From: a virus
Lineage: Duplodnaviria > Heunggongvirae > Uroviricota > Caudoviricetes
DNA: 23,370 nt
Virus record (IMG/VR): IMGVR_UViG_2529293239_000006
Span: 1-23,370 of that record
Strand: one strand, 5' to 3'
Part shown: positions 17,123 through 19,356 of the stretch, piece by piece
How positions within the stretch are numbered: position 1 is the first letter of the stretch
Layout: each line of letters begins with the position of its first letter
Notes under the pieces: model-generated
The model's database searches: none
What the model was told of the DNA's origin: nothing
Seen by the model: the letters and a program-made list of their open reading frames with translations, nothing else
Translations under genes and position numbers: made by a program

Positions 17123-17893
17123 TCAATAAGTGCCCTTCTTATTCGGATTCACAGAGTACTTCCGTAAAGCATTACCCGACTTAAGCACCTTTGAAGCTTG
17201 CTCATTAGCTGAGGCTGTGAAGGTGCTCTCACCATTTTTAACGCTAACGCTCTTAGAGCACGTTACACGGGCTTTTAGCGCTTCATCTGATAACTCACTT
17301 GCCGAATAGCTAAAAAGCTCTTTACAGGTCAGCATAGGGCTTCCAAGGCTCGTTGTAGTGTTGCCAGTATTCTTTTTACTGGTAGCACCACCATCATTCG
17401 TGGTAGCAGTCTTGCCAGTTGCAGCCGAAATATCAGTCTGACCCACAATAGCTTTGAAGTTAATTTCCTGAAAAGTTAGCTGGATTCTTAGACCATTTGA
17501 AATACCAACATCTTTAGAGGCTTTAAAGCTCGTGATAATGGAATCATCAATTTTAATTCCGTCTTTACAGATGACCGAAATAATCTGCTTCTGGTCACGC
17601 CAGTTTTCCAGAGTGTCGATGAAGTTCTCCACCAGCTTAGTATCTCGTGAGATAAGGATACTACCGGATTCACCAACTACAACGACACCACTAATAGTGA
17701 TTGTTCTGGGTGCTCTTTGCACATTATCTGTGACGGTTTGCCCTGATTGCATGTTCTGTGTAGTCACCTGCATAGGGCTGTCAAATTCCATGTTTTCAGT
17801 TGCTGATAAGGTTAAGAAGGCATCTACATTATCTCTTAAGTGGAAGTAAACGCCATCTTTGCCAGTGTAACGAAGTTGATTAGAGTAAATCAT
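17123..17893 (-). CDS. hypothetical protein (AT-rich cassette; possible phage tail component)
   Basis: ATG at 17893 preceded by AAAGGAG at optimal spacing; 256 aa; Thr/Ser/Gly-rich C-terminal third. Visibly lower GC than its neighbours (by eye, not computed). No family assignable from memory. Confidence 0.6.
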
Positions 17894-17983
17894 TAAATTC
17901 TCCTTTGATTTCAAAGGCTTAGTGTATTTTAATCATTTTTAACCAAACCTTTGATATATAAGTATTTTCTCTGTTAAGCGTGA

Positions 17984-18038
17984 GCTACGTGAAAAATAAT
18001 TTTTGGTGTGGGTATTAACTTTGCTTTATTCACGTAGC
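17984..18038. repeat. perfect 10-bp inverted repeat in the intergenic region of the AT-rich cassette
   Basis: GCTACGTGAA (17984-17993) and TTCACGTAGC (18029-18038), separated by 35 bp of AT-rich sequence between the two cassette genes. Confidence 0.5.
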
Positions 18039-18050
18039 ATTCGACTATTA

Positions 18051-19356
18051 TTAATCATCTTCTGGGAATGATGAACTTAATAGCGTAGCTTCTGCATATT
18101 GGTCGTAGATATTACTGCTAAAGGTCATAAAGCTGGTTTCATCTGGTTTAATGGCAACTTCACCACCAAGTGAAACTTTCACAGGCTCCTGAATACGTTT
18201 GCTCAAAGCGGAGATTTCATCTCTCAGGCTTTGGATATCTGCACTCGTTAATGCTGAATCTTGCTTAATGTTGTTTAATTCTGGATGCTGGAAGTTAGCA
18301 AGATTCATAGCAGCACTATTAAACCACCCTTTAACATCATCCATAGTGAAAGCGGGTTTAAGTCCAGACTCTTTAGCCAGCTCTGGTAATTTAGCTTGTG
18401 CTTCCATTCGTTCAGGTGTAGAAGCTAATCTTTCATAACCTGCATAGATAGCACTACCAGCTAATAGCATCTTCATAGGGTTTAGTCTTGATGGTTTCCC
18501 ATTCTTTCTATTCACGTTATCCGCTGTAGTATCAGCTACCTGACCTAATCTTGTGATAGCAGTCATAAGCCCGTAAATACTTCTGGTTACACCAACAACT
18601 TTATTCACAGCAATAACACCAGCCAAGACTTTTAAACTATTAATCAAGCCAGAACCTAAAGCATCAACAACTTTCTTTTGTTCATCGGTTAAACCACGAT
18701 AAGCTAATGTCACCTCATCAAAGAATGCTCTCACTCTGTAACTGATATCGGTCAGGCTATCCACACCACTTGACATAGAAGTCATCAAGCTACCAAGAGA
18801 TTCACCAAGACTCTTACCACTTCCACCTAAACTGTTTAAAAGCGTTGTTAGGCTTCGTGTAAAATCTTGCAGACCATTTTCAGAACCTCTGAAGATACTA
18901 TCAAGCGTGGTATTCCAAGAGTTTTTCAGGTTCCCCAGTTGTGCTTGTGTGCTTTCTGAAATAGCTTTCCAGCCACCTTTAGCTGTGATTTGTTTATTCA
19001 GTTCCTGAGTGACCTTCTGAAGAGTATCGGCAGATTTTAAAGCCCCCTTCTTCATGGCATCAAATAATTCCTGTTCACTCTTTCCGGTTGCTTTAGCGAA
19101 TACCTGAACCATACCAGGAACAGCTTCAGCTAGTTGCCCCTTAAGCTCTTCAGCCATAATCTGACCCTTACCAGCCATCTGTGATAATGCTGTCAGTGCT
19201 CGCTTAATCTCTTCCTCACTTCGACCCATTAAACGAGAATAGCCAATCATATTTCTAAAAAGCTCTTCAGAACCTTGAATACCCATAGACTCTTTAGCTG
19301 AAGCACCAAAACCAGCAAACTGTGATTGCAGTTCAGCGATATCTAAACCCGTTGTT
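18051..19356 (-). pseudogene. tape-measure-domain protein, 5'-truncated by IS911
   Basis: The reading frame enters the IS911 left inverted repeat, and the apparent GTG start at 19382 is inside IS sequence. Translation carries a tape-measure core motif (...SEEEIKRALTALSQMAGKGQIMAEELKGQLAEAVPGMVQVFAKATGKSEQELFDAMKKGALKSADTL...). AT-rich. Confidence 0.65.

Follow-up and report, generated by a model that had tools for sequence, protein, structure and literature searches.

Among the islands of E. coli, Shigella, and Salmonella that use the structural genes of helper phages, the P4-like elements and phage-inducible chromosomal islands (PICIs) are small (~10–15 kb) and are characterized by tyrosine integrases, AlpA/Pri-Rep proteins or the P4 alpha primase, genes redirecting capsid size or packaging, and temperate helpers. 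The PICI-like elements (PLEs) of Vibrio cholerae are of ~18 kb. They are satellites with a serine recombinase whose helper is the virulent myovirus ICP1, and their genes include those for a tail assembly chaperone (TAC), a tape measure protein (TMP), and the baseplate hub protein BhuB; the tails that they build are chimeric and shorter, the PLE TMP is needed for transduction, and in PLE11 the TMP and BhuB replace the phage counterparts in the chimeric tails (PMC12987554). According to the same paper, tail interference encoded by a satellite can act as defense by itself, and predicted tmp genes have been noted only in the Vibrio PLE-like elements and in some capsid-forming PICIs (cf-PICIs) (PMC12987554). 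The subject of this account is an AT-rich two-gene cassette lying between IS911 and dinB in IMG/VR virus record IMGVR_UViG_2529293239_000006 (positions 1 to 23,370; this whole stretch of 23,370 nucleotides is referred to below as the window). It is practically certain that the finding is real, that the genes of the cassette are a truncated TMP gene and an intact gene for a tail tube initiator, and that the cassette represents the attR end, cut short by IS911, of a large serine recombinase (LSR) element inserted in the 5′ end of dinB. As a whole, the locus is probably best explained as the stub of such an element, whose parent family may consist of satellites or parasites of the genus Felixounavirus.

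The cassette (17123–19356) has a GC content of 40.6% between flanks of 54–55%. Its initiator gene has 42.3%, its 157-bp spacer 29.3%, and its TMP fragment 41.0%, compared with 54.2% in dinB, 55.1% in the tail region of the neighboring prophage, and 51.8% in IS911; the greater AT-richness relative to the prophage and dinB, noted in an earlier reading made from the letters of this DNA (the sequence-only reading), is thus borne out. Both open reading frames (ORFs) of the cassette are on the minus strand, the TMP fragment preceding the 256-aa initiator, and the pair bears the PGAP labels ‘tape measure protein’ and ‘phage baseplate protein’. Since the first nine codons of the TMP ORF, called at 18051–19382, lie inside the left inverted repeat of IS911, the genuine TMP sequence begins at 19356; the 5′ end of a protein with a tape-measure domain is indeed cut by IS911, at 19356/19357, as had been claimed. 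The fragment matches Pfam PF20155 TMP_3 (2e-18, 67.1 bits; gathering threshold 41) and several PHROG tape-measure families, a full-length relative matches TIGR02675, and the best PDB match of the full-length element TMP is Bas63 gp017 (5.6e-69). The surrounding prophage does have a tape measure of its own at 6456–8291, a 611-aa protein of the PF10145 PhageMin_Tail family, unrelated to the cassette TMP. Setting of tail length takes both termini of a TMP; the window TMP lacks ~248 N-terminal residues of ~682 and, because this N-terminal third is gone, the fragment cannot function. In the four listed Shigella assemblies that have the call, the TMP appears as an ORF of 438 or 443 aa beside an IS3-family transposase.

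The second protein, which the sequence-only reading could assign to no family, has turned out to be a tube initiator. It matches Pfam PF21821 Dit_like (distal tail-like) at residues 37–153 (E = 1e-19, 71.4 bits; gathering cut-off 24.2), phrog_3721 over its full length (1.8e-131), and, at residues 5–256, PDB 9ndy_A, ‘Tube initiator protein (gp018)’ of phage Bas63 (8e-120), to which it is almost identical at residues 5–195. The strong ribosome-binding site and the Thr/Ser-rich stretch described earlier are both present, AAGGAG standing 7 nt ahead of the ATG and residues ~158–185 being rich in Thr, Ser, and Gly. The protein is composed of an N-terminal tube-like domain and a ~100-aa C-terminal extension. 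In Bas63, gp18 forms a hexamer with the tube-protein fold that fits the sixfold tail tube to the threefold baseplate hub, and a C-terminal extension of ~100 residues threads through the baseplate; in the cryo-electron microscopy structure the hub is touched by the TMP, gp17, with its last 25 residues (PMC12609058). Homologues of the initiator were detected by tblastn in 299 phage records, most of them from Felix O1-like myoviruses (Ounavirinae) that infect enterobacterial hosts. In the window, in all the elements discussed below, in phage bumzen, in the phage records listed, and in ICP1 its gene lies directly 3′ of a TMP gene. The survey of homologues proposed in the sequence-only reading gives a position after a tape measure gene, the settings being virulent Felix O1-like phages and the end of a ~11.5-kb chromosomal element. 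Of the two features that were to mark an ordinary phage remnant, a match to a known distal tail family was found, but homologues also occur outside intact prophage tail modules. PHROG families 1517 and 380, also matched by the window initiator, bear the label ‘endolysin’, as does ORF78 of the deposited ICP1 genome (NC_015157); the label is probably an annotation error spread among Dit-like or LysM-like tail proteins.

The junction with dinB was mapped by comparing the empty site of K-12 (lafU-dinB) with both junctions of the element in E. coli APEC O18. The attB site in K-12 reads ...GCAATGCGTAAAATCAT/TCATGTGGATATGG, attL in APEC O18 ...AAAATCAT/GATTTTCACTTCC, and attR ...AAAGTGAAGATTAT/TCATGTGG, the slash marking the crossover; the deduced attP of the dinB-type element is an imperfect palindrome, GTGAAGATT-AT-GATTTTCAC. 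The crossover is located within dinB codons 3–5, its AT dinucleotide corresponding to window positions 17055–17054, and the window at 17054–17140, a stretch running from the stop codon of the initiator gene into dinB, equals the APEC O18 attR. The placing of the cassette upstream of dinB in the sequence-only reading is therefore correct insofar as it adjoins dinB, with the amendment that the junction (crossover 17055/17054) is inside the first dinB codons; the Flag-2 remnant that was said to occupy this place in K-12 is present there, lafU being the K-12 neighbor of dinB. A dinB junction of this type was found in 8 of 5,426 E. coli genomes. The attR arm (17122–17054) takes the place of the promoter, LexA box, Shine-Dalgarno sequence, and ATG native to dinB, and supplies TATAAT (17107–17102), the palindrome ATGTATAAATATACAG (17093–17078), and a GTG start (17064–17062). 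The palindrome is similar to a LexA box but with ATG in place of CTG, the TATAAT is the sole promoter-like sequence upstream of dinB in the window, and the DinB N-terminus with the element-supplied codons, MKIIHVDMD..., differs from the native start. From its sequence, the attR arm appears now to drive dinB. The features of the locus are listed in Table 1.

Table 1. Features of the cassette and its immediate neighbors in the window.
Feature	Position	Strand	Basis or remark
dinB with element-supplied promoter, start, and first codons	16012..17064	(-)	context
attR arm of the element, replacing the native dinB 5′ end	17054..17122	(-)	identical to the APEC O18 junction
Tube-initiator (Dit-like) gene, intact, 256 aa	17123..17893	(-)	PF21821, phrog_3721, PDB 9ndy_A
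AT-rich spacer between TMP and initiator genes, 29% GC	17894..18050	(-)	10-bp inverted repeat GCTACGTGAA...TTCACGTAGC
TMP gene, C-terminal 434 codons of ~682 aa, 5′ third gone	18051..19356	(-)	Pfam TMP_3
IS911, 1250 bp, cutting the TMP gene	19357..20606	(+)	near-identity to annotated IS911

The origin of the cassette can be traced in complete E. coli genomes, where the TMP-initiator pair (88–95% nucleotide identity) is the terminal cargo of a compact element of ~11.5 kb and is never located in a prophage tail module. The element resides inside yecE (S171-1, Q5), between wrbA and ymdF (ECNB21-M121, ES5, 67-1), or between lafU and dinB (APEC O18), and the same architecture recurs in assembly contigs standing alone and among the proviral regions of IMG/VR. 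In at least 12 chromosomal contexts examined it is of uniform size (~11.5 kb), with precise att junctions and intact genes. In none of the contexts examined were genes found for capsid, portal, terminase, sheath, tube, baseplate, or lysis functions. The suggestion that the cassette is the remnant of a second phage tail module thus holds as to the foreign, truncated TMP/distal-tail-like DNA, unrelated to the adjacent prophage, and fails as to the source, which is a serine-recombinase element. An ordinary defective prophage, i.e., the tail-module leftover of a second temperate phage near dinB, would account for two bona fide tail genes in canonical order within AT-rich foreign DNA, for the tail labels given by PGAP, and for the listing of related loci as proviral in IMG/VR. 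Such an origin is, however, quite improbable: the shared element with its precise junctions is devoid of sheath, tube, baseplate, head, and lysis genes, its uniform size and gene order at three sites and in 7% of genomes are unlike independent prophage decay, and the sole phage relatives are virulent felixounaviruses.

The LSR of the element has 507, 514, or 547 aa according to the integration site, and the other genes are arranged in the order h185 or Rep-like, h92, x, h107, h236, h67, TMP, initiator, often with a small resolvase/invertase, with a Dam-type methyltransferase or HNH endonucleases, and with several small genes of no assigned function, as well as 1–2 kb of repeat-rich non-coding DNA. 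In two variants only (L030 and L031), a 321-aa winged-helix protein matches PHROG replication-initiation families (3e-11); the others carry the 185-aa h185 in its place. None of h67, h138, h236, h107, h71, and h185 could be assigned from searches of Pfam, PHROGs, NCBIfam, and PADLOC, and PADLOC-DB v2 gave zero matches for 10 element proteins at E ≤ 0.01. For h92 there is a weak, sub-threshold DndE-like match (TIGR03184, E = 0.0017), and the match of a 128-aa gene of variant L005 is at chance level. PDB sequence searches with h236 and h185 gave no match, the AlphaFold2 model of h236, based on a shallow alignment, is poor (pLDDT 61.8, pTM 0.42), and scanning the element against Rfam and for tRNA genes found nothing. 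The gene of h236, a 236-aa marker protein labeled ‘transposase’ by PGAP, is present in 377 of the 5,426 complete E. coli genomes (~7%), always on the chromosome, in one to three copies and at 71–100% nucleotide identity; its 3,087 clusters at 90% identity carry the names E. coli, E. fergusonii, Salmonella enterica, and S. sonnei. In the APEC O18 element two 48-nt direct repeats 95 bp apart lie in a conserved non-coding region (record L002, 21470–21517 and 21565–21612), and contig ERZ1090866 NODE-760 (L033) has TATCTAA repeats and a GTGACATTTTGTCAC palindrome; all of these are candidate origin or operator sites.

The window TMP fragment and the cassette are 95% identical in nucleotide sequence to the yecE-type element of S171-1, but the cassette is only 81–82% identical to the dinB-type element of APEC O18. 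Because the cassette is closer to the yecE type than to the type sharing its integration site, cargo alleles shuffle between recombinase backbones. The spacer between the two genes is conserved at 78–86% nucleotide identity between elements. TMP alleles have 40–95% amino acid identity to the reference TMPs where the recombinases each have 92–95% identity to one reference LSR, the initiator having 74–87%; this suggests that the TMP interior is a focus of diversifying selection or module swapping. It should also be mentioned that five of the 25 E. coli hits listed have an annotated IS3-family transposase (ISEc52 and IS1203 types among them) inside the TMP-initiator match; four of these matches are split in two. 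These disruptions may be independent of the Shigella IS911 event, and their recurrence might reflect counter-selection or a hotspot.

In the window itself only the last ~2.3 kb of the element remains, and no recombinase gene, attL, or core genes were found there or in the 10-kb flanks of related S. flexneri assemblies. IS911 is 99.5% identical to copies annotated as ‘IS3-like element IS911 family transposase’ and has the 1250-bp length of this IS3-family element. It lacks the 3-bp target-site duplication, the flanks being GTT and CAT, and on its far side lies the C-terminal part of the prophage head protease. A simple insertion of IS911 is ruled out by the missing duplication and by the unrelated prophage on the other side; because of these features the remainder of the element was lost through an IS911-associated rearrangement. 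The wider surroundings have been rearranged as well. Perfect inverted 1,310-bp copies of another IS3-family sequence at 13372–14681 and 21639–22948 bracket the segment 14682–21638; they split the major capsid gene of the prophage into an N-terminal part (21065–21680, plus strand) and a C-terminal part (12737–13348, minus strand), and an IS66 element into orf1 (14679–15029, minus strand) and TnpB (23020–23370, plus strand). Since the inverted copies split both the capsid gene and IS66, the arrangement indicates that a further insertion sequence (IS)-mediated inversion placed the dinB locus inside the prophage.

A specific tie of the element to Felix O1-like phages emerges from several comparisons. 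Among 50,697 phage records, megablast with the cassette found Felixounavirus only (214 records, window 17343–17864, best ~92% nucleotide identity). The private 5.7 kb of the element also matches Felixounavirus only (57 records), through an 80-bp non-coding iteron-plus-hairpin motif. There is also an exact match of a 23-nt terminator hairpin between element and phages, the HNH gene of one element variant is ~42% identical to a homing endonuclease of bumzen, and the GC content of the element (~39%) equals that of the phages. The iteron-hairpin motif consists of GGT-rich repeats of ~8 nt followed by the hairpin GGTGGAT...ATCCAC and TTAAAAATC. It occurs at least four times in the non-coding DNA of Felix O1-like phages (in bumzen, L016, at 835–1177 and 2330–2445) and once in some elements only (L002 22447–22528, L026 ~1784–1852), has no Rfam match, and might serve as an origin or a promoter or specify a small RNA. 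A role as a universal origin or packaging site was dropped, the motif being present in some elements only.

The relation between the tail genes of the element and those of bumzen changes sharply along their length. In the initiator, residues ~20–185, comprising the tube-like domain, have 88–100% identity and the last ten residues are conserved, with 20–45% identity in the C-terminal extension; in the TMP, residues 1–45 have 80–88% identity and the C-terminus LLSSS(Y/F)PE.. is conserved, with 15–50% identity in the interior. For the initiator N-domain compared with phage by the Nei-Gojobori method, the synonymous divergence (dS) is 0.26–0.6 and the ratio of nonsynonymous to synonymous divergence (dN/dS) 0.10–0.22 (0.14 for the window versus bumzen), and the C-extension is saturated at synonymous sites. 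Two elements compared with each other in the N-domain differ by a dS of 0.8, more than either differs from phage. Because the element-element dS exceeds the element-phage dS, repeated exchange with phage alleles is indicated, and the pattern is best accounted for by gene conversion that took place repeatedly with co-resident phage genomes while selection kept the docking surfaces compatible with the helper. The 520-bp tract of up to ~92% nucleotide identity to Felixounavirus and the phage-like GC content might also suggest that a piece of the genome of a virulent Felix O1-like phage was captured directly, by illegitimate recombination next to dinB. This is extremely improbable, the TMP being only ~28–36% identical to phage TMPs, the initiator C-extension being saturated, and the cassette being 90–95% identical over its full length to chromosomal elements and ending at a serine-recombinase att junction. 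The att junction and the identity to the elements rule it out for practical purposes.

The closest precedent for the element, by analogy, appears to be the Vibrio cholerae PLE. In both cases a chromosomal LSR island is tied (by sequence, in the case of the element) to a virulent contractile-tailed phage. Both carry a TMP gene of their own followed immediately by a Dit-like gene, the TMP being somewhat shorter than that of the helper (680–726 aa in the E. coli elements, 736–742 aa in the phages), and both have nuclease genes and no capsid, sheath, or tube genes. The BhuB counterpart of ICP1, Gp78, is itself a PF21821 Dit_like protein, encoded directly after the TMP and before a Pam3_gp18-type plug, as in Felix O1-like phages, so that the element carries a family-equivalent pair. 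It differs from PLEs in its smaller size, its Enterobacteriaceae hosts, and its putative helper, Felixounavirus; neither a TAC nor a capsid scaffold (TcaP) nor a RepA_N homologue was recognized in it, and its initiator tube domain is 88–100% identical to that of the helper, unlike the PLE tail proteins, which are 19–41% identical to those of ICP1. Bas63 has the same two genes (gp17/gp18; PDB 9ndy; PMC12609058) in the same order, with the TMP_3 core and both TMP termini in common. In Bas63, however, the pair belongs to a virulent genome of 86–88 kb, flanked there by the TAC genes on one side and by those for plug, hub, and baseplate on the other, whereas in the element it is terminal cargo; the Felix O1-like genes abut, whereas those of the element are separated by the spacer; and the TMP interior and the initiator C-terminal extension are strongly diverged. 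A TMP gene is also carried by cf-PICIs and by the mycobacterial EPIPs, which are satellites or putative satellites, the latter also with a serine integrase (PMC12987554; bioRxiv 10.64898/2025.12.02.691453). They encode capsid, scaffold, terminase-small-subunit, or connector genes in addition, which the element lacks, and parasitize temperate siphophages. P4-like elements and PICIs resemble the element in size and host range and in their reliance on helper structural genes; none of the integration, replication, or redirection genes typical of them was found in the element. Literature searches returned no description of a satellite of Felix O1 or Ounavirinae, of a TMP-bearing E. coli satellite, or of this element.

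Mobility of the element is suggested by a single contig. The two junctions of the yecE-type element have in common a 7-bp core, TGATTTT, and the 29-mer of the attP predicted from them has one exact occurrence in the metagenome collection, inside the 11,473-bp contig ERZ1090866 NODE-760, which consists of the whole element, circularly permuted and without yecE flanks. The contig demonstrates that a recombined attP form occurs in nature, as an excised circle, a concatemer, or a tandem array. The dinB-type attP 24-mer and the yecE-type 29-mer are absent from IMG/VR. The stand-alone Logan contigs of ~11 kb hold the element in its integrated arrangement and not as circles: L017 ends with ~20 bp of chromosomal flank, L034 runs on into chromosomal genes, and L035 and L038 extend from near the resolvase gene to the LSR gene.

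On the ties to Felixounavirus and the analogy with PLEs, the view that the parent elements exploit felixounaviruses as PLE-like satellites or parasites appears about evenly poised. The fuller proposal, that the elements form an undescribed satellite family parasitizing virulent Felix O1-like myoviruses by means of their own TMP and tube initiator, by way of chimeric tails and/or a block of helper tails, is put forward tentatively, as slightly short of an even chance. Upon infection by a Felix O1-like phage, the parent element would excise and replicate, and the TMP and Dit-like initiator that it supplies would nucleate tails on the baseplate hub of the helper and recruit the helper tube and sheath, the outcome being chimeric tails and/or poisoned helper tail assembly. 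The surfaces that would dock with helper parts, i.e., the initiator tube domain and the first ~45 and last ~10 residues of the TMP, would have been kept helper-like, and the rest would be element-specific.

Several observations weigh against a satellite of this kind. No gene for capsid size redirection, no small terminase gene, and no packaging signal was recognized in the element, which leaves the packaging of 11.5 kb into the capsid of a phage with an 86-kb genome without explanation, and no TAC was identified among its products. The replication-initiator match is modest and confined to some variants, as is the iteron-hairpin motif. The element was not found in GenBank records of phage lysates, and in IMG/VR it is present only as proviral regions; contig NODE-760 could stem from a tandem chromosomal array and has no terminal overlap proving a circle. 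Moreover, the identity of the 256-aa protein across S. flexneri assemblies may reflect clonality only.

That no packaging or capsid-remodeling function was found would be expected if the parent element were a non-transmissible anti-phage defense island, not packaged by phages and moved by its recombinase and by other routes, in which the TMP and initiator serve as dominant-negative decoys and the HNH nucleases as further effectors. Docking surfaces identical to those of the helper combined with divergent interiors suit a poison subunit as well as a hijacker, the hypervariability of the TMP (40–95% amino acid identity) among LSR backbones of 92–95% is reminiscent of an arms race, and the tail interference of PLEs acts as defense alone (PMC12987554). 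However, no PADLOC model matches, a full-length, constrained TMP together with the initiator exceeds what a decoy needs, and the excised form and the replication initiator of some variants fit amplification during infection. A pure defense island is thus unlikely, though it deserves some weight. By analogy with PLEs, which do both, the satellite and defense readings would not be mutually exclusive.

As regards the window, the history of the LSR-element stub is as follows. In an ancestor of the S. flexneri lineage the attP of the element recombined with the site in dinB, bringing in the replacement promoter and start codon. A later IS911-associated rearrangement removed the TMP N-terminus (to residue ~248), the genes of no assigned function, the replication region, the LSR gene, and attL, leaving an immobile stub with one intact gene, that of the tube initiator, which may still be expressed. 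This remnant is most likely inert, and it is unlikely that it keeps a role. A domesticated gene, in which the initiator is kept for protection from the Shigella phages Sf13, Sf14, Sf17, and Silverhawkium, or the DNA is kept as a dinB promoter, is improbable. S. flexneri does host felixounaviruses, and the ORF is intact, has a strong ribosome-binding site, and is co-oriented with dinB, whose only upstream promoter-like sequence is in the attR arm; the exact 256-aa protein is found in at least 174 contigs named Shigella flexneri or ‘MULTISPECIES Shigella’. Nevertheless, identity within a clonal lineage is no evidence of selection, and the promoter-bearing 69 bp are downstream of the ORF and independent of its intactness. 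A scan of the cassette for sigma-70 promoters and terminators gave nothing above the shuffled expectation, the region upstream of the initiator gene included. In E. coli SCU-484 the dinB-site copy has decayed to a 120-nt initiator fragment, with dinB still annotated as an intact CDS.

Integration of the dinB type also swaps promoters on the other side, as the recombinase gene ends up behind the native LexA-controlled dinB promoter (APEC O18 attL, L002 25480–25640). The dinB-type recombinase gene has in addition its own LexA-type box of the CTG-N10-CAG form, TACTGGATGAATATACAGAT, ending 3 nt before the ATG and kept in SCU-484; no such box is present at the yecE- and wrbA-type recombinase genes. 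Downstream of dinB in the window, yafP follows directly with a 4-bp overlap (15563–17064 for the two genes), and the toxin-antitoxin genes yafN-yafO, present in K-12 and APEC O18, are absent. Beyond yafP there is only an N-terminal fragment of an RtcB-family ligase gene (15081–15344), beside IS66 sequence.

The mystery of the window is thereby resolved, the 256-aa protein being a tail tube initiator and the cassette the dead end-piece of a mobile element, and the identification of attR explains the non-native promoter and start codon of dinB in this lineage. Members of the dinB type rewire an SOS gene and could alter the regulation of a mutagenic polymerase in their carriers, S. flexneri included. 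The value of the finding is moderate for the window alone and considerably greater for the element family to which it points. If the satellite proposal is true, E. coli, Salmonella, and Shigella would gain a tractable counterpart of the Vibrio PLE/ICP1 system, and replacement of the TMP and tube initiator would be a general satellite strategy. With these elements, PLE-type tail remodeling by satellites would for the first time be found outside Vibrio, its target being a phage genus in wide use for typing, biocontrol, and therapy, and a common chromosomal determinant could limit Felix O1-type phages in the biocontrol and therapy of Salmonella and E. coli.

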